Shown here in pieces: positions 8-56,239 of a stretch of DNA of 64,000 nt. The stretch is taken from positions 36,427 through 100,426 of the forward strand of contig JAJPJQ010000037.1 in the NCBI GenBank assembly GCA_021324155.1. The letters run 5' to 3'. Position numbers and translations under genes: made by a program. How positions within the stretch are numbered: the first letter of the stretch is position 1; each line of letters starts with the position of its first letter. This DNA is from Pseudomonadota bacterium. Lineage in GTDB: Bacteria; Desulfobacterota; Binatia; UBA9968. The notes below the pieces were generated by a model that did no database searches, was not told the origin of the DNA, and saw nothing but the letters and a program-made list of their open reading frames with translations.

Positions 8-736
8 ATGAAGCAGATCACGACCGGCATGACGGACGAAAAGGGCGAGTACAATCCCAACCGCGGCCACTTGAGCGACGGCGTCATGGGCCTCGCGCTG
101 CTGCAGCGGCACGCGGGCATCCGCTCCGGCCTCGATCACTTCGGCTTCGAGGTCGAGTCGGGGCAGACCGTCATGGAGCGGCTCAAGAAATATCCCGAAG
201 TGCGCGTCACGAGCAGCCTCGAGCATGTGCCGTTCGCCGTCATGCGCATCCAGGACCCCGCCGGCACGCACATGGACGTCTCGCAGCAGGGCGTCGCCAA
301 GGTGCGCGAAGGCTATCTGGAAAAAGGCTGGGAGCAGCCGCGCCACCTGCATCATGTCGCGATCCGCACGGCGAAGCCGGCGTATCTCGCGCAATTCTAC
401 CAGGACGTCTTCGAGCTCCGTCCCGTGGAAAGCGGCGACGCCAGCGGACAGGTTTGCGTCAGCGACGGGAAAGTCTCCATCGTGATCATGCCCACGGAAA
501 ATAAATCCTACCGCTCGATGACCGAGGGACTCGACCATATCGGCTTCAAAGTCGACGCGCTCCGGAAAGCCGACGACGATCTTAGAAGTCTCGCGAGCCA
601 TCATCCGGAGTCGAAGCCGAAGCAGATCGACCTCGGCCGCTTCGGTCCGACGACGCTCGCCGAGATCGACGCCTGCATGCTCGGGCGGCGCTCGCTCGCC
701 GATCCCGACGGCGTGCTGATGGATCTCGTCGAATAA
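8..736 (+). CDS. VOC (glyoxalase/bleomycin-resistance/dioxygenase) family protein with two tandem VOC domains; possibly 5'-partial at the window edge
   Basis: ORF translation has two repeated beta-alpha-beta-beta-beta glyoxalase-like modules (HFGFEV...; HIGFKV...). The frame is open to nt 2, so the true start may lie upstream. Confidence 0.55.
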   Translation: MKQITTGMTDEKGEYNPNRGHLSDGVMGLALLQRHAGIRSGLDHFGFEVESGQTVMERLKKYPEVRVTSSLEHVPFAVMRIQDPAGTHMDVSQQGVAKVREGYLEKGWEQPRHLHHVAIRTAKPAYLAQFYQDVFELRPVESGDASGQVCVSDGKVSIVIMPTENKSYRSMTEGLDHIGFKVDALRKADDDLRSLASHHPESKPKQIDLGRFGPTTLAEIDACMLGRRSLADPDGVLMDLVE

Positions 737-1707
737 TGCGGCCTGTCCGCATTCTCGTCTCCATTCTATTCGCGCTCGCCGCGTTCGTTGCGCTTCCGCC
801 AGCGTCCGGCGCGCAAGACAAAAAGATCACGCTCGGCCTCACGACGCGCACGGGCAGCAACTCGCTGCCGTTCGTCATCGCCGAAGAGAAAGGCTTTTTT
901 AAAGGCGAAGGCCTCAACGCCGTGGTGGTCGTCATGCAGAACCAGGTCGTGGTCACCGGCGTCGCGAGCAAAAACGTCGATTACGGCGGCACGTTCTCAA
1001 ACTTCGTCGGCGCCGCCATCGCCGGCCTGCCGGTCAAGATCGTCATGTCGGTCATGGACGGCTCCGACCACGTCCTCGTCACCGCGCCGGGAATCAAACG
1101 CGTCGAAGACCTCAAAGGAAAAATCGTCGGGATCAGCAGCTTCGGCGGCACGCCGCACAGCGAAGTGATCACGATCTTGAGGAAGCACGGCATGACCGAG
1201 AAAGACGTCACCTTCCTCCAGATCGGCGGCAGCTCGGCGCGCTACCAATCGTTGGAGGCCGGAAACATCCAGGCTGCGATGCTCGTGCCGCCGTTCAACA
1301 AGATTGGCCGCCAAAAAGGCTTCAACGAGATCGTCTCTTTCAACGACGTGCTGAAAATTCCGCTCGGCGGCCTCGCGACGCACATCGATAAGACGAAAGA
1401 ATCGCCCGGCGAGATCGTCAAGATGATTCGCGCGCTCATCAAGAGCGTCGATTACATTCACAACCGCAAGGCCGACATTCTTGCCCTGATGGAAAAAAGC
1501 TGGGGCGTGAAAGATACCGAGGTGCGCGAGGCGATGTACCGCGATCTCGTCGGACTCTACAGCCGGAACGGCGTCGCGCCCGACGATGTAATGAAGAATG
1601 TCATCCAGTTAGTCCAGGAAGGCCGGAAGACCAAGACCGCCGCGACGATCTCGGACGTCGCGGATTGGTCGTACGCGAAGAAAGCGAGCGAGGAGCTCAA
1701 GCGCTAG
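736..1707 (+). CDS. ABC transporter substrate-binding protein, NMT1/THI5-like (NitT/TauT family), secreted
   Basis: N-terminal signal peptide (LFALAAFVALPPASGA). SsuA/NMT1-like fold motifs; paralogous to the ORFs at 1711-2688, 4367-5362 and 10849-11826. Confidence 0.7.
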   Translation: MRPVRILVSILFALAAFVALPPASGAQDKKITLGLTTRTGSNSLPFVIAEEKGFFKGEGLNAVVVVMQNQVVVTGVASKNVDYGGTFSNFVGAAIAGLPVKIVMSVMDGSDHVLVTAPGIKRVEDLKGKIVGISSFGGTPHSEVITILRKHGMTEKDVTFLQIGGSSARYQSLEAGNIQAAMLVPPFNKIGRQKGFNEIVSFNDVLKIPLGGLATHIDKTKESPGEIVKMIRALIKSVDYIHNRKADILALMEKSWGVKDTEVREAMYRDLVGLYSRNGVAPDDVMKNVIQLVQEGRKTKTAATISDVADWSYAKKASEELKR

Positions 1708-3581: not shown

Positions 3582-4370
3582 ATGAGCGACAAGCCAAGAA
3601 TCGCCACCGGCCTGGGCAAGGCCGAGCTCCATCGCATCCTGGTCCGTGGGCATGACCTCACCGAAGAGCTTGTCGGCAAGATCACTTTCAGCGATATGGC
3701 CTATCTCATGCTCGCCGGCAAAATGCCGACGGATGGGCAGCGCCGCATGGTCGACGCGCTGCTGACGATCCTGGTCGAGCACGGCATGGTCTCGAGCGTC
3801 ATCTCGGCGCGGCTCACTTATCACACCGCGCCGGAATCGATCCAGGCGGCGGTCGCGGCTTCGATTCTCGGCGCCGGCAGCGTCCATCTGGGATCTTCCG
3901 AATGGTGCGCGCGCATGCTGCAGCAGGCGCTGCCGCCAGGCATCCATAATGCCGACCTCAACGCCGTCGCCGCGGCGGTCGCGAAGGACTACGACGAGCG
4001 CAAACAGCGCATCCCCGGCATCGGTCACCGCACGCACGCCGAAGGCGACCCGCGCGCCGCGCGCCTGTTTCAAATCGCGCGCGAGACGGAAGTCTACGGC
4101 CGTTACTGCGAGCTTTTACAGAAGGTCACCCAGGCCGCCGAAGCGCGGCGCGGCCGCAGCCTACCGGTGAACGTCACCGGCGCGATCGCCGCCGTCGCAT
4201 CCGATCTGGGTCTACCGTGGCAATTGTCTAAGACGTTCGCGCTCGTCGGCCGCACGCTCGGCGCGATGGCGCACATCGGCGAGGAGATCCGCAATCCGAT
4301 GGCCGGCCAGATCGACGCCGCGATCAAGTCTGCGCTTGTTTACGAGCTCGACGAAAAGGAGAAAAAATGA
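3582..4370 (+). CDS. Citrate synthase family small protein (citryl-CoA lyase-like)
   Basis: Motif IPGIGHRTHAEGDPRA resembles the citrate synthase catalytic signature GFGHRVYK..DPRA. Length about 260 aa is typical of stand-alone citryl-CoA lyase-type proteins. Start at MSDKPR with an upstream GGAGGTG. Confidence 0.55.
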   Translation: MSDKPRIATGLGKAELHRILVRGHDLTEELVGKITFSDMAYLMLAGKMPTDGQRRMVDALLTILVEHGMVSSVISARLTYHTAPESIQAAVAASILGAGSVHLGSSEWCARMLQQALPPGIHNADLNAVAAAVAKDYDERKQRIPGIGHRTHAEGDPRAARLFQIARETEVYGRYCELLQKVTQAAEARRGRSLPVNVTGAIAAVASDLGLPWQLSKTFALVGRTLGAMAHIGEEIRNPMAGQIDAAIKSALVYELDEKEKK

Positions 4371-5362
4371 TCGCCCGCGTTCTCGCTGCGCTCGCGGCTG
4401 CTGTCTTGTTGCAAATGGCGCCGACCCGCGCCGACGCGCAGCCGCTGAAGAAGCTCAACCTCTCGTACACTGCGACCAGTCCCTATCAGGCGGTCGTCAT
4501 CATCGCGCAGCAGGCAGGACTCTTCAAGAAATACGGCCTCGACGTCACGCTGATTTTCATGGCTGGAGGGTCGCTCGGCATTTCGGCGATGATGAGCGGC
4601 GAAGTGCCGATCACGCAGGCGGACGGCTCGGCGTCCGTGGGCGCTAGCGCCGCCGGGGTCGATGTCGTCATCTTCGGCAGCTTCTTGAACACGTTTCCGT
4701 ACAGCCTCGTCTCGCTGCCCGAGATAAAGACCGTCGAGCAACTGAAAGGAACAAAGATTGCGATCAGCCGTTTCGGCAGCGCGACCGACCTGAGCGTCAA
4801 GATGGCCCTCGCCAAAGTCGGACTGAACCCGGACAACGTAACGCTGCTGCAAGTCGGCGCGCAGACCGCGCGCGCGGCGGCGCTGCAATCCAAAAACGTC
4901 CAGGCGACGATCATCACGCCGCCGTTCACGCTGACCGCGCGGAAGCTCGGCTACAACACCCTGATCGACATGGCTCAGCTCAATATTCCATACCAGCTGA
5001 CCGCGCTCGTGGGCTCGCGCGCCTATCTCAAAACGCACCGCGACATCATTTTGTCCTTGATGCGCGCGTCGTCCGAAGCGATCCATTTCTACAAGACGCA
5101 AAAAGAAGCGAGCGTCAAAATCTTGAGCAAATATCTCCAGACGACCGATCGCGAGGCGCTCGAGGAGACCTACCGCGAGGTGAGCCTCAAAGCGGTTCCC
5201 GACAAACCCTATCCAACGCTCGCGGGCGTGCAGACGATCTTGGACGAGCTCTCGGCGAAAAATCCGAAGCTTAAGTCCGCGAAACCCGAAGATTATGTCG
5301 ACATGAGCTTCGTCAAAGAGCTCGACGACGAGAAATTTTTCGACCGCTTGTACAAGCGCTGA
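4367..5362 (+). CDS. ABC transporter substrate-binding protein, NMT1/THI5-like
   Basis: Signal peptide; paralog of the other three SBPs. Start overlaps the upstream stop (ATGA), suggesting translational coupling with the citrate-synthase-like gene. Confidence 0.7.
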   Translation: MIARVLAALAAAVLLQMAPTRADAQPLKKLNLSYTATSPYQAVVIIAQQAGLFKKYGLDVTLIFMAGGSLGISAMMSGEVPITQADGSASVGASAAGVDVVIFGSFLNTFPYSLVSLPEIKTVEQLKGTKIAISRFGSATDLSVKMALAKVGLNPDNVTLLQVGAQTARAAALQSKNVQATIITPPFTLTARKLGYNTLIDMAQLNIPYQLTALVGSRAYLKTHRDIILSLMRASSEAIHFYKTQKEASVKILSKYLQTTDREALEETYREVSLKAVPDKPYPTLAGVQTILDELSAKNPKLKSAKPEDYVDMSFVKELDDEKFFDRLYKR

Positions 5363-8668: not shown

Positions 8669-8697
8669 TTGACTTCCCGCCTCCCCTTTCATATCTC
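8669..8697 (+). promoter_or_regulatory. Putative sigma70-like promoter for the hydantoinase-like operon (TTGACT-N17-TATCTC)
   Basis: TTGACT at 8669-8674, 17-nt spacer, TATCTC at 8692-8697, then GAGAGGA RBS and ATG at 8729. Confidence 0.3.
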
Positions 8698-8728
8698 TGC
8701 TTGAAAGCACTCACGAGAGGAAAACAGA

Positions 8729-10840
8729 ATGGCGGCGCGTGAGCAATACATCATCGGCATCGACACCGGCGGGACGTTCACCGACGCCGTCGTCATGAGC
8801 GAAGCCGGCCAGGTCTGGACCGCAAAGGCGTCGACGACGCCGGACGACTTCTCGCGCGGCGTCATGGACGCGCTCACCGAAGCGGCGAAGACCGTCGGCG
8901 TCGACCGTAAAGAGCTGTTGAATCGCACGACGCTCTTCAAGCATGGCAGCACCGTCGCGACAAATGCGCTCATCACACACAGCGGCGTCAAAGTCGGCTT
9001 CATCACCACCATGGGATTCGAGGACACGACCGAGATCATGCGCGCGATCGGGCGGGTCGACGGCCTCTCGGAAGACGACATTCGCCACGTCACCTGGGTG
9101 ACGAAGCCCGATCCGATCGTCCCGCGCGAGCTCATCATCGGCGTGCGCGAGCGCGTCGACTATCGCGGCGAAGTCGTCGTGCCGCTGAACCGCGAGGACG
9201 TCATGGATGCGATTCGCCGGCTGATCCAGGACGAGAGAGTCGAGGCGATCGCCGTAAGCCTGCTCCACGCCTGGGCGAATCCGAAGCACGAGGAAGAGAT
9301 TCGCAGCCTCGCCGTGGAAGCCGATCCATCGCGCAAGGTGTACTGGTCGTTCGGCAGCGCGCTGTCTCAAGTCGCCGGCGAGTACGCGCGCGCCAACACG
9401 GCGATCATCAACAGCTACTTAGGCCCGACCGTCGAGCGCTATCTCAAGGGCCTCGACGAGAAACTCCGCGCCGGGGGATTGAAAGAGCCGCTGCTCGTGA
9501 TGCAGGGCAACGGCGGTGTCGCGCACCGCGAGCAGGTCTCCGCGATCGCGAATCTCCAATCCGGACCGGCCGGCGGCATGATCGCTTCCGCGCATGTCGC
9601 GGCGCTGCTCAAGCATAAGAACGTCATCACGACCGACATGGGCGGCACAAGCTTCGATGTCGGTCTCATTACCGAGGGCTACTGGCGCTACGCGCCGGAG
9701 CCGATCGTCGAGCGCTTTCGCGTTCTCCAGCCGATCATCGATATCGAGTCGATCGGCGCGGGCGGCGGCACGATCGCGCGCGTCGAGCCGGAGACCGGCC
9801 GTCTGCTCGTCGGCCCGAAAAGCGCCGGCGCAAGCCCCGGCCCGGTCTGCTACGATGCGGGCGGCGAGGAAGTCACCGTCACCGACGCGGATCTCGTCCT
9901 CGGCGTGATCGATCCGAATTATTTCCTCGGCGGCAAAAAGCTCCTGAACAAAGAGAACGCCATCAAAGCCGTCGAGGAAAAAATCGCGCGCCCGCTGAAG
10001 CTGAAGGCGCACGAGGCCGCCGCCGGCGTGGTCGAGATCGTCAACAGCAAAATGGCCGATCTCATCCGCCGCCAGGTCGTGCGCACCGGCTACCTTCCCG
10101 AAGAATTCGTCATCTACGCATTCGGCGGCGCCGGAGCGGTGCACGCCGCCGGCTTCGCCGCCGATTTGGGCGTCAAGGAGATTTATATTTTCGCGACTTC
10201 GCCCGTCTTCTCCGCCTTCGGCGCGGCGGCGGCCGACGTCATCCGCACGCGCGTGATGACGTGCCAGTATATCCTTCCGGCCGACCCGCGCGCCGTCAAC
10301 GAGCGGCTCGCGGCGATCGAGTCGGAGATGAAAGAGATCATGAAGGGCGAGGGTTTTGCCGCCGGCGAAACGGAGTTCCGCCGCTTCTTTACAATTCGTT
10401 ACCGGCGCCAGACCGCCGGCGTCGAGCTGCCGATCGTCTGGGACCGCTTCAATAGCGAGCGCATGCAAGAGATCGTGAAGCTATTCGAGAAAAAATACGA
10501 GGAGCTTTACGGTACCGGCGCCGGCTACACGAAGGCGGGCATCGAGATCAGCGCGATCCGCGTCGACGCGGTGGGACGCGTCGCCAAGCCGCGCCTGAAG
10601 ATCCAGCGTGGGAAGTCCGCGAATGCCGGCGCGGCCAAAAAAGGCCGCCGGAAAATTTTCTTCACGCGCCCTGAGCGGCGGTTTATCGACACCGACGTTT
10701 ACGACTACATGCGCCTGTCTCCCGGCGCGCGCATCAAGGGACCGGCGGTCGTCGAGCTTCCATTCACGACCGTGCTCGTGCCGCCCGGGTTTCAAGTGAG
10801 CGTCGATTCGTATCAAAACTTGGTCATGAAGGTCGGCTGA
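8729..10840 (+). CDS. Hydantoinase A / oxoprolinase / acetone carboxylase beta-subunit family protein
   Basis: N-terminus GIDTGGTFTDAV is the ASKHA-fold signature of the HyuA / acetone carboxylase beta family. 703 aa. Confidence 0.85.
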   Translation: MAAREQYIIGIDTGGTFTDAVVMSEAGQVWTAKASTTPDDFSRGVMDALTEAAKTVGVDRKELLNRTTLFKHGSTVATNALITHSGVKVGFITTMGFEDTTEIMRAIGRVDGLSEDDIRHVTWVTKPDPIVPRELIIGVRERVDYRGEVVVPLNREDVMDAIRRLIQDERVEAIAVSLLHAWANPKHEEEIRSLAVEADPSRKVYWSFGSALSQVAGEYARANTAIINSYLGPTVERYLKGLDEKLRAGGLKEPLLVMQGNGGVAHREQVSAIANLQSGPAGGMIASAHVAALLKHKNVITTDMGGTSFDVGLITEGYWRYAPEPIVERFRVLQPIIDIESIGAGGGTIARVEPETGRLLVGPKSAGASPGPVCYDAGGEEVTVTDADLVLGVIDPNYFLGGKKLLNKENAIKAVEEKIARPLKLKAHEAAAGVVEIVNSKMADLIRRQVVRTGYLPEEFVIYAFGGAGAVHAAGFAADLGVKEIYIFATSPVFSAFGAAAADVIRTRVMTCQYILPADPRAVNERLAAIESEMKEIMKGEGFAAGETEFRRFFTIRYRRQTAGVELPIVWDRFNSERMQEIVKLFEKKYEELYGTGAGYTKAGIEISAIRVDAVGRVAKPRLKIQRGKSANAGAAKKGRRKIFFTRPERRFIDTDVYDYMRLSPGARIKGPAVVELPFTTVLVPPGFQVSVDSYQNLVMKVG

Positions 10841-10848
10841 AGGAAGCG

Positions 10849-11826
10849 ATGAGACGCGTTCGCATTTTTTCGCTGATCGTCATTTTCGCTGGAGCCATAT
10901 TGTTGTGCGCCGCGCGCACGGACGCCGAACCGGTACGCATCGCCGTCGGGACGGCGAGCGTCGCATCGCTGCCGACTTGGGTCGCTCAGGACGGCGGCTA
11001 TTTCACGCGCGAGGGCATCCAGTCCGAATTGATCTACATCCGCGGTGGCCCGCAGACGCTCTCGGCACTCGTCGGCGGCGACGTGCCTTTCGCGCAGGTG
11101 TACAGCCAGCCTGTCCTGGCCGCGCGTATCACGGGCGCCGATACCGTGATCGTCGCCGGCCTCATCAATACGCCGCTGTTTTCCATCGTCACCGTGAAAG
11201 ATATCGGCAAGCCGGAAGAATTGCGCGGCAAGAAAATCGGCATCAGCACCTTCGGCTCCGCCACCGACCTCGCGGCGCGCCTCGCGCTCAAGAAATGGGG
11301 CCTCAAGCCGGAGACCGAAGTAACGATCCTGCAGATGCGGGGCGTGCCAGAGATTCTGCCGGCGATGGTCTCGGGCGCGATTCACGGCGGCGTGCTGTCG
11401 CCGCCGACCAACATGATGGCGGTGAAGGCCGGTTTCAGGGAGCTCGCTTATCTACCGCAAGCCGGCATCTCGTTCCAGCACACGACGCTCACCACGACGC
11501 GAAGATATCTGGAAAAAAATCGCCCGACCGCTCTCAAGGTTCTGAACGCCTACAAGGGGGCGATCGAGAGGATTAAAAGCGACAAGGCGTTCGCGTCGAA
11601 GACGCTGGCCAAGTATATGCTGACGAACGACGCCGAAGTGCTCGACTACAGCTACACCGTCTCCGCGCCGCTCTTTAAGCCGCTTCCCTATCCGACGCTC
11701 GACGGCATCCGCGCGACGCTCGATTTCATCGCCGAGCGCGAGCCGAAGGCGCGCCAGGCGGAGCCGAAAGACTTCGTCGATGTCTCGCTCCTCGAGGAGA
11801 TCGAGAAGGCGGGACGTAAAAAATAG
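10849..11826 (+). CDS. ABC transporter substrate-binding protein, NMT1/THI5-like, embedded in the hydantoinase-like operon
   Basis: Signal peptide (IFSLIVIFAGAILLCAARTDA). Paralog of the three upstream SBPs; sits between the HyuA-like and HyuB-like genes with 8 bp and 13 bp spacers. Confidence 0.7.
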   Translation: MRRVRIFSLIVIFAGAILLCAARTDAEPVRIAVGTASVASLPTWVAQDGGYFTREGIQSELIYIRGGPQTLSALVGGDVPFAQVYSQPVLAARITGADTVIVAGLINTPLFSIVTVKDIGKPEELRGKKIGISTFGSATDLAARLALKKWGLKPETEVTILQMRGVPEILPAMVSGAIHGGVLSPPTNMMAVKAGFRELAYLPQAGISFQHTTLTTTRRYLEKNRPTALKVLNAYKGAIERIKSDKAFASKTLAKYMLTNDAEVLDYSYTVSAPLFKPLPYPTLDGIRATLDFIAEREPKARQAEPKDFVDVSLLEEIEKAGRKK

Positions 11827-11839
11827 TCCGAGGATTTTC

Positions 11840-14059
11840 ATGAAAGCGATCGATCCCATTCGCTTCGAGATGTTCTTCCACCGCCTGTGGGCGATCGGCG
11901 AGGAAGGCCGCATGACGCTCCAGCGCGTCACCGCCTCGCCCATCGTCTCGCAAGGCGGCGAGTGCATGAGCTCGTTCTACGACGAGAAGGGCGACATGGT
12001 GCTCGCCTGCTCCGGCCACCTGCGCTTCGCCGCGGCGACGTCGGACGCGATCAAATATTTGATCGACGGCTTCGGCGCCACGCCGGGCTTTCACGACGGC
12101 GACCAGATCTTCTTCAACGACCCGTACGTCGCCGGCTCGCACACGTACGACATGATGGTGATCAAGCCGATCTTCCACAGAAAGAAGCTGATCGCATGGA
12201 CCGCGACCAGCACGCACACCGCCGATACCGGCGGGCTGTTGCGCGGCGCCGCGGAAGAGATTTATCACGAAGGAATCTGCATACCCTGTTTGAAGATCGT
12301 CGAGCGCGGTGAGTTTCGCGAAGACGTCTTTCGCACCCTCACCGGCCAGTGCCGCGATCCGCAGTACGTCGGCCTCGATTTGAAGGCGATGATCGCCGGC
12401 AACAACGTCTGCGCGCGACGCTATCTCGGATTGGTGGAAAAGTTCGGCGCGGATTTCGTGGCCGCCGCGGGTCAGAAGATGATCCGCGACTCCGAAGCCA
12501 AGGCGCGCGCGAAGCTGCGCTCGATGCCCGACGGCGTCTGGGTGACGCGCCAATACGTCACCACGCTCGACCGCAAGTCGCGCAAGTCGGTCGCGCAGCA
12601 GCTTTTCCTCACGATGACGAAGAAAGGCGACGAGCTGCATCTCGATTTTACCGGCACGAGTCCGCAGACCGACACCGACCACAATTCGACGCTGCCGAGC
12701 ACCGTCGCGCATATCGCGCTCGCGCTCACCAACACGCTTTTCTGGGACGTGCCGTGGAGCGACGGCAAAATGCGGCCGGTAACGATTACCGTGCCGGAGG
12801 GCACGATCCTCAACTGCAAGTATCCCGCCGCGTGCGGCGCCGGACCGCGCATCGGCAACGTGCTCGTCTCGACGACCTGCGAGGCCGCGGCGAAAATGAT
12901 TTTCGCATCAGGCCGCAGCGAGGACGTCAATGCATCGACCACAGGTAATTTGGAGTTCGTCGGCGGCCCCGGCTACTTTTACGGCGGCCGCACGCGCGAA
13001 GGCATCCGCGTCGCGCAGGGACTCTACGACATCCACGGTGCGGGCATGGGCGCCGCGCCCTATCGCGACGGCGTCAACACCGGCGGCCACATGAATATTC
13101 CGTCGGCCGGCATCAGCGACGTCGAGCGCATCGAGATGCAGTATCCGTTTTTATACTTCACGCGTGGGCATAACCGCGACGGCAGCGGTTTCGGAAAATA
13201 CCGTGGCGGATTGGGCAGTTATCGTATTTATCTTATCTATGGCTCGAAGGACTGCTCGGTCGACTACAAGCCCTACGGCGGCATCGCGCAGGGCGGCTTC
13301 GGCCTCTTCGGCGGCTATCCGACCGGCATCGGCGCGATGCGCGTCATGACCGAAGCGGGCGTCGACATGGTCGATAAAGTAAAGCAGGGAAAATATCCCG
13401 ACGCGTCATCGATGCGCGCCGGCGATTGGGGCAAGCCGTTTCATCCGCAGGGCGTGCCGGAGCGTATCGCCCTGCCGGAAGGAAGTTTACTTGTCGACTA
13501 TGTCGCCGGCGGCGGCGGTTTCGGCGATCCGCTGGATCGCGCGCCCGAGGCGGTGCTGAAAGATTTCGGCCGCGGCTGGGTCAGCCGAGAGACGGCGGAA
13601 GGAATTTACGGCGTCGTCATTGCCGCCGATGGCAAAAAACTGGACAGCGACGCGACGGCGCGCAAGCGCGAGCACATCCGCCGCGCGCGCCGCGACGAGG
13701 CGAGAGCCGAGGCTGGAAAAACCAGCGCCTTCAACGGCGACGGGAAAAAAGACTTAAAGACGCTGCTCAAATTCCACGCGGCGCTGGAAACCGCCGGCGA
13801 CAGGAAGAACGCCGTCGTGCGCTGCTCGCGCTGCGGCCATGCCTTCTGCTCGGTCAAGGAAAATTACAAGCTCTACGCGCTGCATCGCGTCGTGCACCTG
13901 AAAGACTTCATGCCGAACGCGCTGCCGACGGGCGAGCCGTACATCGGCGAGTATCATTATTATTTCTGCCCCGGCTGCGCGACACAGCTTCAGGTCGACC
14001 TCTTCTGCCCGCCGCTCGGCGGCGAGCCGATTCTCTGGGACATACGGATCGCGTCATGA
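11840..14059 (+). CDS. Hydantoinase B / oxoprolinase / acetone carboxylase alpha-subunit family protein with C-terminal AcxC-like zinc-ribbon (gamma-subunit-like) domain
   Basis: HyuB-family core. The C-terminal about 90 aa carries CSRCGHAFC...YKLYALH...YFCPGCATQL, matching my recollection of the Cys4 Zn-ribbon pattern of acetone carboxylase gamma subunits. Start set at MKAIDP (11840). Confidence 0.8.
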   Translation: MKAIDPIRFEMFFHRLWAIGEEGRMTLQRVTASPIVSQGGECMSSFYDEKGDMVLACSGHLRFAAATSDAIKYLIDGFGATPGFHDGDQIFFNDPYVAGSHTYDMMVIKPIFHRKKLIAWTATSTHTADTGGLLRGAAEEIYHEGICIPCLKIVERGEFREDVFRTLTGQCRDPQYVGLDLKAMIAGNNVCARRYLGLVEKFGADFVAAAGQKMIRDSEAKARAKLRSMPDGVWVTRQYVTTLDRKSRKSVAQQLFLTMTKKGDELHLDFTGTSPQTDTDHNSTLPSTVAHIALALTNTLFWDVPWSDGKMRPVTITVPEGTILNCKYPAACGAGPRIGNVLVSTTCEAAAKMIFASGRSEDVNASTTGNLEFVGGPGYFYGGRTREGIRVAQGLYDIHGAGMGAAPYRDGVNTGGHMNIPSAGISDVERIEMQYPFLYFTRGHNRDGSGFGKYRGGLGSYRIYLIYGSKDCSVDYKPYGGIAQGGFGLFGGYPTGIGAMRVMTEAGVDMVDKVKQGKYPDASSMRAGDWGKPFHPQGVPERIALPEGSLLVDYVAGGGGFGDPLDRAPEAVLKDFGRGWVSRETAEGIYGVVIAADGKKLDSDATARKREHIRRARRDEARAEAGKTSAFNGDGKKDLKTLLKFHAALETAGDRKNAVVRCSRCGHAFCSVKENYKLYALHRVVHLKDFMPNALPTGEPYIGEYHYYFCPGCATQLQVDLFCPPLGGEPILWDIRIAS

Positions 14060-15249
14060 GTCTTCGAGGCAAAGCCGCCGTAGTCGGCATCGGCGAAACG
14101 CCGGTCGATCGGCTAGGCAGAAAGCCGGGCGAGCCGAAGAAATCGACCGCCGAGTATCTCGCTTGGGCCGCGCGCCTCGCGATGGAAGACGCCGGGCTCA
14201 GCAAGCGCGATTTCGACGGCCAGGGGCTCGCCGCGATCTACACGACCAATCACTCCCAGCCGTTCTGGCCCGAAGAGGCGGCGAATATCCTCGGGCTCGC
14301 CCCCGCCGTCTCGCTCGCTGGTGGCAACGGCGGCGCGAGCGCGGTGTCGCTGCTCGGCCACGCGGCGGCGATGATCGACGCCAGCGTCGTCGATCTCGTG
14401 CTCGTCCTCGCCGCGGCGGCGCCTTTCAGCGAGCACGGCCGCACGCGCGCCGAACCCGGCGACACGCGCGACTTCGAGATGCCCTACGGCGTCATGGGGC
14501 CGAACTGCAAGATCTCATTCGTGATGAGCCGCTATATGTACGAGTCCGGTATGACCGTCGACCATTTCGGCAAGATCGCCGTCACCGGCCGTTATCACGC
14601 GACGCTCAATCCAGAGGCATATTTGAGGAAACCGCTGACGCTGGAAGAATATCGCAGCGCGCGCCTCATCTCCGACCCAATCCGGCTCTATGACTGCGTG
14701 CTGCCCGCCAACGGCGGGAAGGCGTACATCATGGCCTCGCCCGCTCGCGCCCGCACACTCAAGAAGCCGCCGGTTTATCTGCTCGGCTGGGGCGAGCGCA
14801 ACAACGCGAGCGCCGGCCCGCGCGCGCACGCGAACCCACTGATCACCGGTATCCGCGAGTCCGGTCAGGCGGCCTTCGCGATGGCCGGCGTGACGCACAA
14901 GGACGTCGACCTGCTCGCGCTCTACGACGACTACATTCCCATCGTCATGCTGCAGATCGAAGACCTCGGCTTCTGTAAGAAAAACGATCGGGAGTTTTTC
15001 GAGCGCACGGACTTCACGTTCAAAGGCGACCTGCCGATCCAGACCGGCGGCGGCATGATCAACTGCGGTCAGCCTTCCACGGCCGGCGGCATGCTGCACG
15101 TGCTCGAGACGGTGCGGCAGCTCCGTGGCGAAGGCGGCGCGCGCCAAGTGGAAGGCGCGAAGATCGGTCTCGCGACCGGCCTCGGCGCCGTCAACTACGG
15201 AAAAAATTTCGGCTGCACTGCGGCCGCGATTTTGGCGAAAGAGCTATAA
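14056..15249 (+). CDS. Thiolase-like (SCP-x / non-specific lipid-transfer-type) protein
   Basis: About 397 aa with the thiolase fold. Start ATG overlaps the upstream TGA (ATGA). Typical partner of DUF35 proteins. Confidence 0.7.
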   Translation: MSLRGKAAVVGIGETPVDRLGRKPGEPKKSTAEYLAWAARLAMEDAGLSKRDFDGQGLAAIYTTNHSQPFWPEEAANILGLAPAVSLAGGNGGASAVSLLGHAAAMIDASVVDLVLVLAAAAPFSEHGRTRAEPGDTRDFEMPYGVMGPNCKISFVMSRYMYESGMTVDHFGKIAVTGRYHATLNPEAYLRKPLTLEEYRSARLISDPIRLYDCVLPANGGKAYIMASPARARTLKKPPVYLLGWGERNNASAGPRAHANPLITGIRESGQAAFAMAGVTHKDVDLLALYDDYIPIVMLQIEDLGFCKKNDREFFERTDFTFKGDLPIQTGGGMINCGQPSTAGGMLHVLETVRQLRGEGGARQVEGAKIGLATGLGAVNYGKNFGCTAAAILAKEL

Positions 15250-15252
15250 ATC

Positions 15253-15681
15253 ATGGCAGAAGCCGTCAAAGAAATTCCCAAGCCGCTGCCCGAAATCACG
15301 TCGGTGACCAAGCCTTTCTGGGACGCGGCGGCCGAAGGTAAGCTGCGCATGCAGAAATGCGCCGCGTGCGGCGCTTGGGTCTGGTGTCCGCGTCCACAAT
15401 GCGGCGAGTGCGGCAGCGAGAAGCTCGTATGGACGGAGCTCAGCGGCCGCGGCGAAGTCTTCGCGTTCACCGTCATCCGCGAGGTCGTCGGGCGCGCGCT
15501 CCGCGGCTTCGAGAAGGATATCCCTTACGTGACCGCCTGGATCGATCTCGAAGAGGGCCCGCGGATCTGCAGCAACATCGTCGGCTGCCCCATCGAGCAG
15601 GTAAAGATCGGCTTGCCCCTCCAAGTGCTGTTCGAGGACGCCGGCCGGGGAATCTTCCTGCCCAAATTTAAGCCGCGCTAA
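15253..15681 (+). CDS. DUF35 OB-fold / rubredoxin-like Zn-ribbon protein
   Basis: Motif CAACGAWVWCPRPQCGECGS (Cys4 Zn ribbon) followed by an OB-fold region. Classical partner of SCP-x thiolases. Confidence 0.75.
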   Translation: MAEAVKEIPKPLPEITSVTKPFWDAAAEGKLRMQKCAACGAWVWCPRPQCGECGSEKLVWTELSGRGEVFAFTVIREVVGRALRGFEKDIPYVTAWIDLEEGPRICSNIVGCPIEQVKIGLPLQVLFEDAGRGIFLPKFKPR

Positions 15682-15758: not shown

Positions 15759-16304
15759 ATGAGGCTTTTTTTTGCCGCAGCCGCAGCCACATTGGTTTTC
15801 TCGTGGAGCATCGCGTCCGCGCAAGCGCCGAGCAACGTCATCAAGAACGGCTCTACCGTGGCCCTTGAATACACGCTTACGAGCGAGGATGGGCAGTTCA
15901 CGGAGTCCAACAAGGGCAAGGAGCCTCTGCGTTACGTCGACGGCCGCGACCAGATCATTCCCGGGCTGGAAAGAGCGCTCGAAGGCCTCCCTGCCGGAGC
16001 GGAGAAGAAAGTAACCGTGAAGCCGGAAGACGGCTACGGTCAGGTCGATCCGAAGAATTTTCAGGAAGTGCCGAAGGAAGCGGTGCCGCCCGACTCTCTC
16101 CACGTCGGCACGACGCTCGTCGCGCAAAACGCCCAGGGACAGCAGTTTCCCGTGCGCATCCACGAGATCAAGGAAAAAACCGTCGTCATGGACATGAACC
16201 ATCCGCTTGCAGGCAAAACGCTCGTTTTCGACGTGAAAATCCTCGACGTAAAGCAGCCGGAAGACCAGACGGCTTCCCCGCCAACCAATTCCCCGCGACA
16301 GTAA
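15759..16304 (+). CDS. FKBP-type peptidyl-prolyl cis-trans isomerase (secreted)
   Basis: Signal peptide, then an FKBP domain (GSTVALEYTLT...DGQ.F.....PL.YV.G...IPGLE.AL.G...G). Confidence 0.75.
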   Translation: MRLFFAAAAATLVFSWSIASAQAPSNVIKNGSTVALEYTLTSEDGQFTESNKGKEPLRYVDGRDQIIPGLERALEGLPAGAEKKVTVKPEDGYGQVDPKNFQEVPKEAVPPDSLHVGTTLVAQNAQGQQFPVRIHEIKEKTVVMDMNHPLAGKTLVFDVKILDVKQPEDQTASPPTNSPRQ

Positions 16305-17053
16305 TGACGCTCGAGGAATTCGCCGATCGTTTAAGAAAAACCCGCGAGATAGTTTTTTTCACCGGCGCCGGCATCAGCACGGAGTCCGGCGTGCCGGACT
16401 TCCGCAGCCCCGGCGGTATCTGGACCAAATACCAACCGGTCTATTACGACGAATTCGTCTCGAGCGAGGCGGCTCGCGCGCGCTATTGGAAAATGAAGAA
16501 CGAGACGCACGAGCTCTATAAGGACGTGCGGCCCAACGTCGGCCATTACGCGATCGCGGCGTTCGAGAAACGCGAGCGGCTACTCGGCCTCATTACGCAG
16601 AACGTCGACGGACTGCACGGCCTCGCCGGCGTGTCGCCGGGAAAGATGGTCGAGCTGCACGGCACGGACCGCAAGGTCACCTGCCTCGATTGCGGCAAAG
16701 AATTCGAGCCGGAGCCGATCTACGCCCGGCTGAAGGACGGCGCGATCCCGGGTCCATGCGCGTGCGGAGGACTGCTCAAGCCGGCGACGATCTCGTTCGG
16801 GCAAGCGATGCCGCAGGACGCGATGCGCCGCGCGGCGCAATGGAGCGAGACAGCGGAGATTTTCGTCGTCGTCGGCTCTTCACTCGCGGTGCAGCCCGCG
16901 GCGTCGTTTCCCGTCGTCGCGAAGCGCAGCGGCGCGCTGCTCGCGATTGTCAACCGCGAGGCCACGCCTCTCGACGATTTAGCCGATTACAACTACCGCG
17001 GCGCAATCGGCGAATTCTTCACGACGCTGAATCCGCTGCTCGCCGACGGATAA
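16304..17053 (+). CDS. cobB: NAD-dependent protein deacylase, Sir2 family
   Basis: GAGIS(T)ESGVPDFR motif, QNVDGLH, and Zn-binding CxxC...CxC (CLDCG...CACGG). Start overlaps the FKBP stop (TAATG). Confidence 0.8.
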   Translation: MTLEEFADRLRKTREIVFFTGAGISTESGVPDFRSPGGIWTKYQPVYYDEFVSSEAARARYWKMKNETHELYKDVRPNVGHYAIAAFEKRERLLGLITQNVDGLHGLAGVSPGKMVELHGTDRKVTCLDCGKEFEPEPIYARLKDGAIPGPCACGGLLKPATISFGQAMPQDAMRRAAQWSETAEIFVVVGSSLAVQPAASFPVVAKRSGALLAIVNREATPLDDLADYNYRGAIGEFFTTLNPLLADG

Positions 17054-17389: not shown

Positions 17390-18652
17390 GTGCCTCGGCG
17401 ATTTTACTACGGGTACATCATCCTCTTTCTCTGCTTCGTCAATACGATGTTCGCGCGCGGCGCTGTCGCGTCGTTCAGCGTCTTCTATGTCGCGCTCCTA
17501 GAAGACTTTCACTGGTCGCATGCCGTCGGTGCGAGCGTCGTTTCGTTGAACTCGCTCGTCTATGCTTCCGTGTCGCCAGGGGTCGGATACCTCTTCGACC
17601 GACTCGGACCGCGGGCGCTGATGCCGCTCGCCGGACTATTGATGGGGCTCGGCTTCGTTTTATCCGGCTTCGGTCATTCGCTATGGGAGCTGTATCTCTT
17701 CTACGGGATTCTCGCAGCCGTCGGTCAGGGCGGCCTGGGCTTCGTCACGCAAAGCGCGCTGCTGTCCGCGTGGTTCGTGCGCCGCCGCGCGACCGCGATC
17801 GGTCTCGCGAGCGCGGGACAGGGCTTCGGCATCATCGCGCTCGTGCCGCTCGCGCAATTTTGGATCGCGCGCGCCGGCTGGCGCACGGCGTTCATGCTCG
17901 TCGGCGCTTTCATCCTCCTCGCGGTGATTCCGCTGAACGCGATCTTTCAGCGGCGCACGCCGGCGCTCGTCGGGCAACTCCCCGACGGCGCGGGCGCTGC
18001 CGTCGACGATCCGAACTACCGCGGCGGCGCCGTTGCGGGGCCCGAGTGGACGCTCGGCGCGGCACTTCGCTCCGCGCCTTTCTGGACAATCGCCTGCGGA
18101 CATCTCGCGCTCGGCACGGCCCTGTTCATCATCTATACCCATTTCGTCGCGCATCTCGTCGAGCAGGGTTTTGAGAAGTTGACAGCCGCGTTCCTGTTCG
18201 GAATCGTCGGATTCATGCGAGTCGTCGGGACGTTCGTCTGGGGCTATGCCTCGGACGTCCTCGGAAGAGCGCCGGCTTACGGTCTCTCGATTCTCGTCGC
18301 GGCGGCGGGCATTCTCGCGATCGCGGCGATCGGCGCGGGAATGCCTCCCTGGCTGGCATACGCCGCCGCGGTCGTCTACGGCCTCGGCCACAGCGCCGGC
18401 AATCCGACCTATGGCGCGGTGATCGGCGATATTTTCGCCGGCAAGAACATCGGCACGATCTTCGGTTTTCTGGAAATCACTTTCGGCATCGGCATGGCGA
18501 TTGGCTCGTGGGCGGGCGGCGCGATCTTCGACGTGAGCGGCTCGTATCGCGCGGCGTTCATGCTGAGCCTCGCGTGCTTCGTTCTATCCTTCGTTGCGAT
18601 TCAGGCGACCGCGGGCTGGCGGCGTAAGAATGCGCCGGCGATCGGATCTTGA
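17390..18652 (+). CDS. MFS transporter (OFA-like)
   Basis: 12 predicted TM helices; MFS motifs (LFDRLGPRA, GLGFVLSG). Confidence 0.75.
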   Translation: MPRRFYYGYIILFLCFVNTMFARGAVASFSVFYVALLEDFHWSHAVGASVVSLNSLVYASVSPGVGYLFDRLGPRALMPLAGLLMGLGFVLSGFGHSLWELYLFYGILAAVGQGGLGFVTQSALLSAWFVRRRATAIGLASAGQGFGIIALVPLAQFWIARAGWRTAFMLVGAFILLAVIPLNAIFQRRTPALVGQLPDGAGAAVDDPNYRGGAVAGPEWTLGAALRSAPFWTIACGHLALGTALFIIYTHFVAHLVEQGFEKLTAAFLFGIVGFMRVVGTFVWGYASDVLGRAPAYGLSILVAAAGILAIAAIGAGMPPWLAYAAAVVYGLGHSAGNPTYGAVIGDIFAGKNIGTIFGFLEITFGIGMAIGSWAGGAIFDVSGSYRAAFMLSLACFVLSFVAIQATAGWRRKNAPAIGS

Positions 18653-30891: not shown

Positions 30892-33111
30892 TCACGCGCC
30901 GCGGAGCGCCGTCAATATCTTCTCCGCCGTGATCGGCAGCGAGTTGATGCGCACGCCGATCGCGTCCTCGACTGCATTCGCGATCGCCGCCGCTACGGGA
31001 ATATTCGACGTCTCGCCGATCGGCATGCTGTTATAAGGACCGGCGCCCTTCGGCTTCTCGACGATCGCCGTCTTGAACTCGGGGACATCCTTGACCGTGG
31101 GAATTTTGTAATCGCCGAAGTGCGCGGTCGTCACCTTGCCGTCGGAGATCATCAGATGCTCCATCAGGCCGTAGCCGATGCCCATCATCGCGGCGCCCTC
31201 GATCTGCCCCTGGTGCATGAGCGGATTGATCACGGTGCCGGTGTTGTGCGCCGTCGTGAACTTCCGGAGCTTCACCTGCCCAGTCTCGGGGTCGACTTCG
31301 ACTTCCGCGACCTGCGCGCACATCGACGCTTCGTGGATCTTCGATGTGTCGCTATAGGTCGCCTCGACGGCGATTGCGCCGCCGTTTGTTTTCGCCAACT
31401 CGGCGTAGCTCACGCGCTTGCCGCCGCGCTTCGCCTGCGCGGCGCCGTCGGCGAGGATAATTTCGTCCGCGCCGACGCCGAGGCGAGACGCCGCGGCCTG
31501 CTTCAGCGCGTCGGCCGCCTTCATCACCGCTTGATAGCCGGCGTTGCCGTAGACGCGCGTCGCGCGGCTGGCACCGACGCCGGTGTCGGGCTTGCCGGTT
31601 TTGGTGTCGAGCGTGTCGGTCTTGATCTGGCTCAGCGGGATTTGCAGCTCTTCGCCGACGATCTCGCACAGCAGCGTGTACGTTCCGGCGCCCTGATCGA
31701 GCATCGCCGAGGAGATCGTGACGACGCCGTCCTGGTCGATCTTGATACCGACGGTACCTGAGCCGCCGTTCGGCGTCCATTGCACGAGCGCGACGCCGCG
31801 TCCGACGTTCTTCGCCTTGGCTTTGTTGTAGCCCGCTTCCTTTAGCGCGAGGTCGAGCGTCTCGTCGGTCTTGATATAGGAGATTTTCTCACCCGTGGGG
31901 TCGGTGTCGCCGTCATGCATGAGATTTTTGCGGCGGAAGGCGATCCGGTCCATGCCGAGCTTTTTCGCGACGAGGTCCATCTGGCTCTCGTTGGCGAAAA
32001 ATCCCTGCGGGTCGCCGGGCGCGCGCATGTGTCCGCATGGAATCTTGTTGGTGTAGACCATGTGCTCTTCGATGAAGACGTTCGGAATGTTGTACGGGCC
32101 GGCGGATGCGTGCGGACCGTTCAGGTAGGCGTTCGGCTTGAACGCGCCGTATGCGCCGCTGTCGAAGACGAAGTCCATGTGGTGCGCGACGATCTTGCCG
32201 TCTTTTTTGACGCCGGTCTTGACGCGCACGACGGAGGCATGGCGCGGATTGCCGGCGACGAACTCCTCGTCGTAATCCATCACGAGCTTCACCGGCCGGC
32301 CGGCCTTCTTCGACATGACGTAGACGAGCGCCACGTCCATGAAATCGCCCTTGCCGCCGAAGTCGCCGCCGATGTAGCACGGATGGACGACGAGCTTCTC
32401 CGGGCTGAGCTTCAGCGCGTTCGCGACCTGCTCGCGGATCGCGTACGGCACCTTGCTGCACGCCCAGATCTCCGCCGAGCCGTCCGCCGCCGTGCTGACG
32501 ACACACGAATGCGGTTCGATGTACGCGTGGTGCACCTGGTTGGTGTAAAAGGTATTCTCGACGACGATATCCGCCTGCCGGAAGCCATCCTCGACTTCGC
32601 CCTTCTTCCACGTGACGTAGATGAAATCGTTCGACGGTGCGTCGAGCTTTTTGGGGAGACCTTTATAGCCTTGCACGTCGGGATGGAGAATCGGCGCCGA
32701 GGGCTCCATCGCCTTGAGCGGATCGAGCACCGGGTCCATCTCCTCGTATTCAACGTCGATGAGGCCGGCCGCCTCTTCAGCGATGTCCTCGGTGTCGGCG
32801 GCAACAGCGGCGACCTTCTCGCCGATGAACCGCACGACGCCGTCGGCGAGGATCGGCATATCGTAGAGCCTGCGCCCGATCCGCAAACCCGTCGTATCCT
32901 CGCCGGTCACGACGGCGCGCACGCCGGGAAGATTTTGCGCGCGGCTGGTATCGATGCGCTTGATGCGCGCGTAAGGAACCGGGCTGCGGAGAATTTTTCC
33001 CCAGAGCATGCCGGGAAGGACCACGTCGACCGCATACATCGCCTTGCCGGAGACTTTGTATTCGCCTTCGACGCGGGGCGTCGGATTGCCTACGACTTTT
33101 TTTCGCGCCAT
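30892..33111 (-). CDS. Molybdopterin-dependent hydroxylase large (MoCo-binding) subunit, xanthine dehydrogenase/aldehyde oxidase/CoxL family
   Basis: 739 aa; N-terminus MARKKVVGNPTPRVEGEYKVSGKAMYAVD is typical of XDH/CoxL large subunits. No FeS or FAD subunit genes in the window. Confidence 0.8.
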   Translation of the reverse strand: MARKKVVGNPTPRVEGEYKVSGKAMYAVDVVLPGMLWGKILRSPVPYARIKRIDTSRAQNLPGVRAVVTGEDTTGLRIGRRLYDMPILADGVVRFIGEKVAAVAADTEDIAEEAAGLIDVEYEEMDPVLDPLKAMEPSAPILHPDVQGYKGLPKKLDAPSNDFIYVTWKKGEVEDGFRQADIVVENTFYTNQVHHAYIEPHSCVVSTAADGSAEIWACSKVPYAIREQVANALKLSPEKLVVHPCYIGGDFGGKGDFMDVALVYVMSKKAGRPVKLVMDYDEEFVAGNPRHASVVRVKTGVKKDGKIVAHHMDFVFDSGAYGAFKPNAYLNGPHASAGPYNIPNVFIEEHMVYTNKIPCGHMRAPGDPQGFFANESQMDLVAKKLGMDRIAFRRKNLMHDGDTDPTGEKISYIKTDETLDLALKEAGYNKAKAKNVGRGVALVQWTPNGGSGTVGIKIDQDGVVTISSAMLDQGAGTYTLLCEIVGEELQIPLSQIKTDTLDTKTGKPDTGVGASRATRVYGNAGYQAVMKAADALKQAAASRLGVGADEIILADGAAQAKRGGKRVSYAELAKTNGGAIAVEATYSDTSKIHEASMCAQVAEVEVDPETGQVKLRKFTTAHNTGTVINPLMHQGQIEGAAMMGIGYGLMEHLMISDGKVTTAHFGDYKIPTVKDVPEFKTAIVEKPKGAGPYNSMPIGETSNIPVAAAIANAVEDAIGVRINSLPITAEKILTALRGA

Positions 33112-33136: not shown

Positions 33137-33212
33137 TGGCTCCCCGGGAGGGACTCGAACCCCCGACCTAGTGATTAACAGTCACCCGCTCTACCGACTG
33201 AGCTACCGGGGA
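33137..33212 (-). tRNA. tRNA-Asn (anticodon GTT)
   Basis: Manual fold: 7-bp acceptor stem (UCCCCGG/CCGGGGA); D-arm GCUCAGUCGGUAGAGC; anticodon loop CUGUUAA (GUU); T-loop GGTTCGAGTCC; discriminator G plus encoded CCA. 76 nt. Confidence 0.85.
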
Positions 33213-38511: not shown

Positions 38512-38516
38512 GCCGA

Positions 38517-52883: not shown

Positions 52884-52907
52884 ACGGAAGTTTTTCGGAG
52901 GTGGAAA

Positions 52908-56067: not shown

Positions 56068-56239
56068 AACCGCGGAGTCGGAAGATTGCAGGGCCGGGAT
56101 TTCAACGATTCGAGACCCGACCGAAAAATTAATACTTCCACGTTTCCAGAATTCCGGAAAGCTGGAAACTTCACCCAGGCCCGAAAAATGTCTACTTTTG
56201 AACAGAAACATTCCGGCCGAACATGCAAATACGCATTAT

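Follow-up and report, generated by a model that had tools for sequence, protein, structure and literature searches.

A 64-kb stretch of the genome of an uncultured soil bacterium of the Candidatus Binatia (contig JAJPJQ010000037.1 of assembly GCA_021324155.1; the whole stretch is hereafter called the window) contains a tightly packed, co-directional operon of five genes on the + strand, at positions 8729-15681 (Table 1). These genes encode a HyuA-like, ATP-binding protein (alpha), a periplasmic-type binding protein of the NMT1 family (SBP), a HyuB-like protein (beta) fused to an Acetone_carb_G domain (gamma), a thiolase-like protein (ThlL) and a DUF35 protein. Direct reading of the gene junctions shows spacers of 8 nucleotides (nt) between the HyuA and SBP genes, 13 nt between SBP and HyuB, and 3 nt between ThlL and DUF35, whereas the stop codon of HyuB::gamma overlaps the start codon of ThlL in a 4-nt ATGA. 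The five genes are located where the initial annotation of this DNA placed them, with the NMT1-family gene inserted between the two Hyu subunits and the ThlL-DUF35 pair translationally coupled; only the start of the HyuA gene differs, being the ATG at 8729 and not position 8669. All domains named in that annotation are recovered by Pfam and NCBIfam. The public gene call for HyuB::gamma has the same start and the same length of 739 aa. A promoter and terminator scan of the 3-19 kb part of the window gave counts that were not above those in shuffled sequence and is therefore unable to delimit the operon.

Table 1. Genes and domains of the five-gene operon and its recurrent or co-located neighbors (coordinates in the window)
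Feature	Position	Strand	Properties
HyuA-like alpha (ATP-binding)	8729-10840	+	703 aa; Pfam Hydant_A_N, Hydantoinase_A, Hydant_A_C, E 1e-26 to 1e-86
NMT1-family periplasmic-type binding protein (SBP)	10849-11826	+	325 aa; Pfam NMT1 (E 9e-21), NMT1_2
HyuB-like beta::gamma fusion	11840-14059	+	739 aa; PF02538 + PF08882
Gamma (Acetone_carb_G) domain	13805-14047	+	aa 656-736 of HyuB::gamma; Zn-ribbon C662, C665, C710, C713
Thiolase-fold protein ThlL, Sal/Ltp2-like, YDDY	14056-15249	+	397 aa; Pfam Thiolase_C_1 only
DUF35 protein (Cys4 zinc ribbon + OB fold)	15253-15681	+	142 aa; Pfam zf-ChsH2 + OB_ChsH2_C
Citryl-CoA-lyase-like protein	3582-4370	+	262 aa; recurrent neighbor of alpha/beta::gamma; NF004868, 6hxp_A
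FKBP isomerase	15759-16304	+	co-located with ThlL-DUF35
Sir2/CobB deacylase	16304-17053	+	co-located with ThlL-DUF35
Monocarboxylate-type MFS transporter	17447-18652	+	co-located with ThlL-DUF35

The fusion of beta with gamma is confirmed by domain profiles, by alignment of the zinc ligands and by structural matching of a model. The Hydantoinase_B profile covers aa 5-564 of the HyuB-like protein (Pfam, E = 2e-106), and Acetone_carb_G matches its C-terminus with 31.6 bits, against a gathering score of 21. The C-terminal domain shows homology to AcxC, the gamma subunit of acetone carboxylase (Acx), as the initial annotation had proposed (5m45_C; phmmer, E = 1e-5), and in the alignment all four zinc ligands of AcxC (C74, C76, C124 and C127; PMC5543143) are kept as C662, C665, C710 and C713; these cysteines do not vary among 31 homologs with 66-96% identity. 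An AlphaFold model of the fusion has a mean pLDDT of 64, with low values in the glycine-rich region and block means of ~55-89 in gamma; its quality is mediocre, and it was used for fold-level matching only. In a Foldseek search of this model against the PDB, the beta chains 5l9w_A and 5m45_A rank first; apart from these, credible matches were obtained only to 5m45_C (E = 9e-4, prob 1.0) and 5l9w_C (prob 0.99), in which gamma is a separate chain. Fusion at the C-terminus of beta is structurally natural because, in acetophenone carboxylase (Apc), an arm at the C-terminus of beta wraps around gamma (PMC5214803). By analogy with Acx and Apc, the role of the gamma domain is probably structural.

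Far from being rare, the fusion predominates among the nearest relatives of the window protein in sequence databases. A word-indexed search retrieved 615 HyuB homologs, the best 120 of which (66-96% identity) almost all combine PF02538 with PF08882, and a scan of one genome per species yielded 179 loci, the best 80 coming nearly all from Binatia-type metagenome-assembled genomes (MAGs). A HMMER search against 1.84 billion representatives of 50%-identity clusters produced 11,486 matches. The top 150 of these all outscore every characterized enzyme in comparison with the window protein; 131 of the 150 are at least 600 aa long, among which 71 match the gamma-domain hidden Markov model and 96 contain the C-terminal Cys4 pattern. 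The fusion is seen in more than 100 close protein clusters and in 80 genome loci of the Binatia type. The earlier impression that it is undescribed is borne out with respect to publications, in that no paper describing the fused architecture was found in the literature on DUF35, hydantoinase, acetone carboxylase, Binatota and Acetone_carb_G, but not with respect to rarity, given the 71-96 fused proteins among the 131 nearest ones.

Several complete Binatia genomes encode at least three beta::gamma paralogs each (L064 and L067-L086; here and below, labels from L004 to L094 denote individual genome loci in the neighborhood surveys), with 54-70% identity to the window protein. Most of these paralogs are orphans, with no HyuA gene within 10 kb on either side (e.g., L080 9962-12205, L072 9962-12214, L085 10001-12235 and L086 4283-6511). 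The orphan in L080 is followed, 4 nt downstream, by a family III CoA-transferase gene, the start of the one in L072 is overlapped by a nitronate-monooxygenase-like gene, and the one in L086 precedes a TAXI-TRAP transporter. In five species, a second HyuB::gamma gene (54-65% identity; L011 1187-3379, L015 4183-6345, L016 4545-6737, L060 4542-6737 and L066 4394-6586) lies directly upstream of HyuA, resulting in the order beta::gamma2-alpha-(SBP)-beta::gamma1, with two catalytic subunits around one ATPase subunit. Elsewhere, HyuA, HyuB and gamma are all fused in one polypeptide (L089 8001-12293; protein P0154, 1430 aa) that is encoded next to genes for an SDR, an aldehyde dehydrogenase and an IclR regulator, and three copies of arylmalonate-decarboxylase-family (Amdase) genes are found near an orphan HyuB::gamma (L087 3695-5944) on a Chloroflexota-type contig. 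Four loci with 77-91% identity and Binatia-type synteny carry labels of unrelated phyla (L005, DATJFG010000044.1, Verrucomicrobiia; L026, Pseudolabrys; L029, Udaeobacter; L051, Chloroflexota); these are probably mis-binned contigs of soil MAGs rather than cases of horizontal transfer.

Among solved structures, alpha is most similar to Apc-alpha (5l9w_B, 420 bits), followed by CapA of caprolactamase (363 bits), AcxA (362 bits) and N-methylhydantoinase (NMHase; 328 bits), and beta is most similar to ApcD (5l9w_A, 229 bits; 29% identity), followed by NMHase (185 bits; 27%), AcxB (172 bits; 26%) and CapB (148 bits; 27%). The NCBIfam scores of alpha (CapA, 545 bits with a cut-off of 1000; ApcC, 454 bits with a cut-off of 1500) and of beta (ApcD, 253 bits with a cut-off of 1500; CapB, 189 bits with a cut-off of 1000) are all below the respective thresholds. 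The ATP motifs DTGGTFTD, DMGGTS and GASPGP (as defined in PMC8453981) and the fingerprint of the contact with beta, RERVDYRG (PMC5214803, PMC8453981), can be read in the translation of alpha, and the equivalents of the AcxB metal ligands E89, H150, D153 and H175 are conserved in beta. Conservation of these ATP motifs and of the metal site extends across the entire family (PMC8453981, PMC5214803), so that they are uninformative for discriminating carboxylases from the ATP-dependent lactamases and related hydrolases (Hyd enzymes, including caprolactamase CapAB, 6YRA, NMHase, 7HK5, and oxoprolinase); indeed, the authors of the Apc structure noted that no motif separates Apc, Acx and Hyd (PMC5214803). 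The published criteria for carboxylases are gene order and the presence of gamma, which is reported to be absent from the known Hyd enzymes (PMC5214803). By these criteria, the enzyme in the window would be classed with the ketone carboxylases and, considering its single alpha, would be of the Acx-like, sequential type.

A neighbor-joining (NJ) tree was constructed from a 455-column core of beta for 134 sequences, with 100 bootstraps. The quartets that unite the window beta with either ApcD or AcxB, to the exclusion of NMHase and CapB, were recovered in 100/100 bootstraps, and the clustering with N-methylhydantoinase and oxoprolinase that would have contradicted the initial annotation is not seen. 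In the same tree, ApcD and AcxB pair with each other more closely than with the window beta. Being apart from the lactamases in the quartets, yet outside the ApcD-AcxB pair, the window beta represents a third deep lineage, between the carboxylase pair (ApcD and AcxB) and the lactamase pair (NMHase and CapB). Assignment to the carboxylases by family membership, as in the initial annotation, is not supported, both on account of this separate deep lineage and because distant fused relatives are found in amidohydrolase-type contexts.

In its composition, the system resembles Acx (AcxABC of Xanthobacter autotrophicus; 5M45, 5SVB), with a single HyuA-like subunit for ATP, a single HyuB-like subunit for the metal and a gamma with a Cys4-Zn site, encoded in the order A-B-C (in the window, HyuA, [SBP], HyuB::gamma), and with conserved E/H/D/H metal ligands and zinc cysteines; the single ATP subunit implies sequential activation of two substrates. 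Acx itself carboxylates acetone at the expense of ATP and with bicarbonate, ATP being converted to AMP plus 2 Pi. It differs from Acx in the fusion of gamma to beta, the SBP gene between A and B, and the CxxC...CxxC zinc motif, compared to CxC...CxxC in AcxC. Furthermore, Acx beta subunits are long (~720-776 aa, with 776 aa in AcxB) and extended at both termini, whereas the beta part in the window consists of only ~620 aa; it lacks the insertions and the ~50-aa N-terminal extension of AcxB, such that the alignment starts at AcxB residue 52, and with 26% identity it falls outside the Acx branch. Apc (ApcABCDE of Aromatoleum aromaticum; 5L9W), the best solved relative of both alpha and beta, shares with the window proteins a comparable length and C-terminal arm of beta, a short gamma without the N-terminal extension found in Acx, and the alpha fingerprint R/KERiDsxG. 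Unlike Apc, the window encodes neither a second alpha' subunit nor a benzoylacetate-CoA ligase, gamma is fused, and the profile scores of 253 and 454 bits are far below the cut-off of 1500. Only one HyuA homolog was detected by tblastn in the 64-kb window, and the orthologous loci likewise contain one; no epsilon or further Apc-like gene turned up in the window, in which no search with an ApcE profile was made.

The single alpha is also typical of the Hyd enzymes, which have the same folds of alpha and beta as the window proteins, as well as the same ATP motifs and metal site. It is conceivable, although in our assessment unlikely, that alpha/beta::gamma is an ATP-dependent hydrolase of lactams or cyclic amides, of the hydantoinase/oxoprolinase/caprolactamase type, which would phosphorylate an amide carbonyl and then hydrolyze it, with gamma as a structural part, and that ThlL-DUF35 catalyzes a separate step or belongs to a separate pathway. 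Such a function would be compatible with the CapA profile being the best NCBIfam match of alpha (545 bits), with the near equality of the identities of beta to NMHase and CapB (27%) and to the carboxylases, with the lack of a motif separating the three groups, and with the neighbors of two distant fused relatives. One of these (L091) is encoded among genes for a GntR regulator, an isochorismatase and an amidohydrolase; the other (L090 2240-7707, 34% identity) is part of a row HyuA-HyuB::gamma-BKACE (beta-keto-acid cleavage enzyme), in a cluster that also includes a dihydroorotate (DHO)-dehydrogenase-like gene and a CN-hydrolase. The BKACE neighbor itself would fit a beta-keto-acid product. Apart from the bootstrap separation of the window beta from NMHase and CapB and the reported absence of gamma from all known Hyd enzymes (PMC5214803), a hydrolase is disfavored by the genomic context, which is not that of nitrogen metabolism: no amidohydrolase, aminotransferase or other nitrogen-metabolism genes are present within 10 kb on either side of the enzyme genes, and the recurrent neighbors are enzymes of carbon-carbon chemistry on CoA esters.

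The first of these neighbors, ThlL, was initially annotated as an SCP-x thiolase engaged in thiolytic processing. Alignment to solved structures does not sustain this annotation: ThlL lacks the nucleophilic Cys (GGNGGAS, compared to AACASGG in the genuine thiolase 7YVY), reads GQP, with Gln in place of the GHP histidine, and contains YDDY where SCP2-thiolase has HDCF. The segments in question, GG(N/T)GGAS, Y290-D-D-Y293 and N-C337-G-Q-P, are invariant or near-invariant in 120 ThlL homologs. With the catalytic residues of thiolases missing, thiolytic processing is unsupported, and ThlL looks like a carbon-carbon-cleaving aldolase, not a thiolase. Its PDB matches are 4u4e (199 bits), CtSal (9myr_A, 192 bits) and TcLtp2 (6ok1_A, 142 bits); the latter two, its best characterized matches, are retro-aldolases of steroid side chains and share with ThlL the Cys-less thiolase fold, and their YDCY and YDHF motifs, respectively, are the equivalents of YDDY. 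Y290 of ThlL aligns with Y302 of Sal and Y294 of Ltp2, this first Tyr of the motif being the catalytic base in both enzymes (PMC12329534), and ThlL also has Gln at the position of Sal Gln352. The proton donors differ, with Asp292 and Thr342 in ThlL at the positions of Cys304 in Sal and Tyr344 in Ltp2; a conserved Cys337 is located near the acid positions. Because of this difference, ThlL is denoted Sal/Ltp2-like rather than a member of either group.

The DUF35 protein points in the same direction: its best solved relatives are the DUF35 domains of Shy (9myr_B, E = 2e-20) and ChsH2 (6ok1_B, E = 1e-16), the partners of Sal and Ltp2, which outscore the DUF35 proteins of the archaeal thiolase/HMGCS complex, PhlB and BbsA. 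Identity to the Sal-Shy (9MYR) and Ltp2-ChsH2 (6OK1) complexes is ~30-35% at most. In these complexes, DUF35 normally is the C-terminal domain of a MaoC hydratase, whereas in the window it is a stand-alone protein, and neither a MaoC hydratase gene nor steroid-degradation genes are found near ThlL-DUF35. The benzoylsuccinyl-CoA thiolase BbsAB and the archaeal thiolase/HMGCS/DUF35 complex likewise combine, from two genes, a thiolase-fold protein of the SCP-x type and DUF35, but the thiolase subunits of both systems keep the catalytic Cys and His, and the matches are much weaker (94 bits for BbsB and 24 bits for BbsA in NCBIfam; 62 and 49 bits for the archaeal 6esq).

These weak BbsB and BbsA matches are among the observations compatible with the pathway favored in the initial annotation, in which a ketone is carboxylated to a beta-keto acid that is converted to the CoA ester and then undergoes thiolysis by a BbsAB-like SCP-x thiolase/DUF35 pair. 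The logic as such is established, acetone being converted to acetoacetate, acetoacetyl-CoA and two acetyl-CoA, and the action of Apc being followed by that of benzoylacetate-CoA ligase (PMC5214803); moreover, a 70% ortholog of the ThlL-DUF35 pair adjoins a family III CoA-transferase (L092). We consider this pathway very unlikely, given that the nucleophilic Cys, the GHP His and the HDCF motif are all replaced, with the differences invariant in the 120 homologs, and that the best solved matches are aldolases and not thiolases. In addition, as stated in the initial annotation, there is no CoA ligase, and no CoA-transferase either, among the main open reading frames (ORFs) of the window.

The second recurrent neighbor is the citryl-CoA-lyase-like protein. 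It passes the threshold of the NCBIfam citryl-CoA-lyase subfamily NF004868 (295 bits, cut-off 193) and matches the Hydrogenobacter enzyme 6HXP (6hxp_A, E = 3e-44). Both His residues are kept, but the protein reads NVTG where the Hydrogenobacter citryl-CoA lyase has NVDG, and the same NVTG is present in 27/27 orthologs linked to Hyu genes (CitS, L004-L059) and in 120/120 nearest homologs. The catalytic residues of the citrate synthase fold are two His and one Asp, and in citrate synthase the Asp of NVD(G) is the general base. The role of this Asp in ACLY is disputed (PMC10115795).

The linkage of both lyase families to the Hyu genes was assessed by searching 80 species loci with the window proteins (tblastn). 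HyuA is encoded directly upstream of every HyuB::gamma ortholog with 73-100% identity for which the flank is sufficient. ThlL lies next to HyuB::gamma, with the same orientation and at a distance of -4 to 681 nt, in the window and in 9 other species; in 5 further species, ThlL-DUF35 is located 1.4-7.3 kb downstream, with additional NMT1 genes in between. Within the clade of the window protein (>=76% identity), the pair is found within 10 kb in 9 of the 16 loci whose downstream flank reaches 8 kb or more. In the sister clade (73-75% identity), a short gene of the citrate-synthase family, the citryl-CoA-lyase-like one, occupies the position directly downstream instead. The latter gene is located 3.7-8 kb upstream in 8 loci of the window clade and 5.1 kb upstream in the window itself, and altogether is linked to HyuA/HyuB::gamma in ~28 species, either upstream or directly downstream. 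The set of partners is lineage-restricted, and the notion that ThlL-DUF35 could be an independent transcription unit, which does not apply to the window, holds in many related genomes. An Amdase gene is located near ThlL-DUF35 in another Binatia genome (L092 13211-13942), together with a UbiD-family decarboxylase.

The adjacency could be circumstantial, with two independent two-gene modules acting on unrelated substrates that happen to abut in one sub-lineage of Binatia; under this explanation, which we regard as somewhat unlikely but serious, the substrate of the Hyu enzyme may be a CoA thioester, as with the IaaCE lactamase. Neither the 73-75% clade nor many of the closer loci contain ThlL-DUF35; where NMT1 genes intervene, the pair stays with the FKBP, Sir2 and MFS genes, with which it is co-located in L005, L008, L009, L011, L017, L018, L051, L063 and L065, and not with the Hyu genes; ThlL orthologs elsewhere have other partners; and the orphan HyuB::gamma paralogs are coupled to genes for CoA-transferase, a nitronate-monooxygenase-like protein (NMO) or ECH. 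A mere coincidence is harder to reconcile with the 4-nt ATGA overlap, which is found in three species, and the spacers of 11-25 nt in five more, with the retention of the pair within 10 kb even after insertions, and with the finding that, in the sister clade, the enzyme is linked to another gene of an analogous lyase family.

Taken together, these findings lead us to propose, tentatively and as a possibility that falls short of being probable, that alpha/beta::gamma is a ketone-activating carboxylase that depends on ATP and acts on the carbonyl compound released by a beta-hydroxyacyl-CoA lyase. The proposal is based mainly on the linkage of the Hyu pair, in different arrangements, to two unrelated protein families in which the known members cleave beta-hydroxyacyl-CoAs to an acyl-CoA and a carbonyl compound. 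In the first step, the complex of the thiolase-fold protein with DUF35 would split a beta-hydroxyacyl-CoA into an acyl-CoA and a free ketone or aldehyde; in the sister genomes, the citryl-CoA-lyase-like protein could be the cleaving enzyme. Alpha would then phosphorylate the enol form of the released carbonyl compound at the expense of ATP and, being the only alpha, would activate bicarbonate as well, in a sequential manner like that of acetone carboxylase, after which the metal site of beta would join the two into a beta-keto acid. Carboxylation would pull the aldol cleavage forward and return the carbon to metabolism.

Several observations weigh against this proposal. With respect to the carboxylase itself, beta lies outside the Acx and Apc branches, with 26-29% identity to all four characterized references, the clade to which it belongs appears to be wholly uncharacterized biochemically, no NCBIfam equivalog cut-off is reached by alpha or beta and the best model for alpha is CapA, and the amidohydrolase and isochorismatase contexts of fused relatives (L091, L090) imply that gamma is not a proven marker of carboxylation. 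With respect to the lyases, the acids of Sal and Ltp2 are not conserved in ThlL, the window encodes no hydratase for producing the beta-hydroxyacyl-CoA, and Thr at the canonical Asp position makes the lyase activity of the citryl-CoA-lyase-like protein uncertain. As for the linkage, ThlL-DUF35 is absent within 10 kb in 7/16 well-flanked loci of the window clade and is present in 0/19 loci of the sister clade, and its orthologs are accompanied by a family III CoA-transferase and an SDR in L092 (70% identity) and by an FAD oxidoreductase in L094.

A further scenario, which we consider highly improbable, casts alpha/beta::gamma not as a carboxylase but as an ATP-driven "enolate generator" that would pass the enol phosphate of a ketone or a keto-acyl-CoA to its partners. 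The partners could be the Cys-less thiolase-fold/DUF35 complex and the citrate-synthase-like protein with the Asp-to-Thr replacement, each of which has lost the residue that creates the nucleophile; the outcome would be ATP-powered formation of carbon-carbon bonds of the aldol or Claisen type, with phosphate as the leaving group. As an addition to this scenario, the orphan beta::gamma paralogs might share the single alpha in trans, in a modular system with one kinase serving many catalytic subunits.

The proposed carboxylase-lyase link, if functional with a partner of the retro-aldolase type, would constitute a new route for removing or salvaging ketones from the degradation of branched or cyclic acyl-CoAs and, if the proposal is true, one that dispenses with CoA ligase and biotin. 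Regardless of the exact reaction, the enzyme belongs to a very large uncharacterized branch, with at least 150 clusters at 50% identity that are nearer to it than any studied enzyme; gamma is fused to beta in most of the nearest members of this branch, which is expanded in Binatia, an abundant uncultured lineage in soil and groundwater. For structural and biocatalytic studies, the fusion provides a form of ketone carboxylase that is naturally simplified to two polypeptides. The fused relatives encoded near amidohydrolases call into question the published rule by which gamma is a mark of carboxylases. The system is a worthwhile biochemical target.

The SBP encoded between alpha and beta has a signal-peptide-like N-terminus and shows only a remote similarity, to TauA (43 bits). 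An ortholog of its gene (65-83% identity) is inserted at ~20 of 58 orthologous loci, and there are no genes for an ABC permease or other transporter membrane proteins beside the SBP gene. Altogether, four NMT1-family genes are located in the first 12 kb of the window (736-1707, 1711-2688 on the - strand, 4367-5362, and SBP itself), none of them with an adjacent ABC permease or ATPase gene, and the one at 4367-5362 is translationally coupled to the citryl-CoA-lyase-like gene. The region can be considered a hot-spot of NMT1 insertion because, in related loci, the Hyu pair is surrounded by as many as five genes of this family. The combination of the periplasmic NMT1 protein with the MFS transporter suggests uptake of a small organic acid or its precursor.

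Several other candidates were rejected as relatives of the Hyu proteins. In the window, the genes at 51711-53330, tried as a Hyu paralog, encode a CHASE2 protein and an unknown one; those at 36634-40259 encode two ABC exporters; and the 739-aa ORF at 30892-33111, of the same length as HyuB::gamma, is a molybdenum hydroxylase. The ATP-dependent dehydratase of Sterolibacterium, considered as a possible member of the family, was dropped since the corresponding paper makes no mention of homology to hydantoinases or carboxylases. A search of the whole window against Rfam yielded a single match, a tRNA at 33140-33212. Toward the end of the window (56000-64000), the G+C content falls from ~0.62 to 0.55, and this segment, which may be an acquired island, holds a type I restriction-modification system that includes HsdM (58663-60156) and an HsdR-like protein (61714-63912), both on the - strand.

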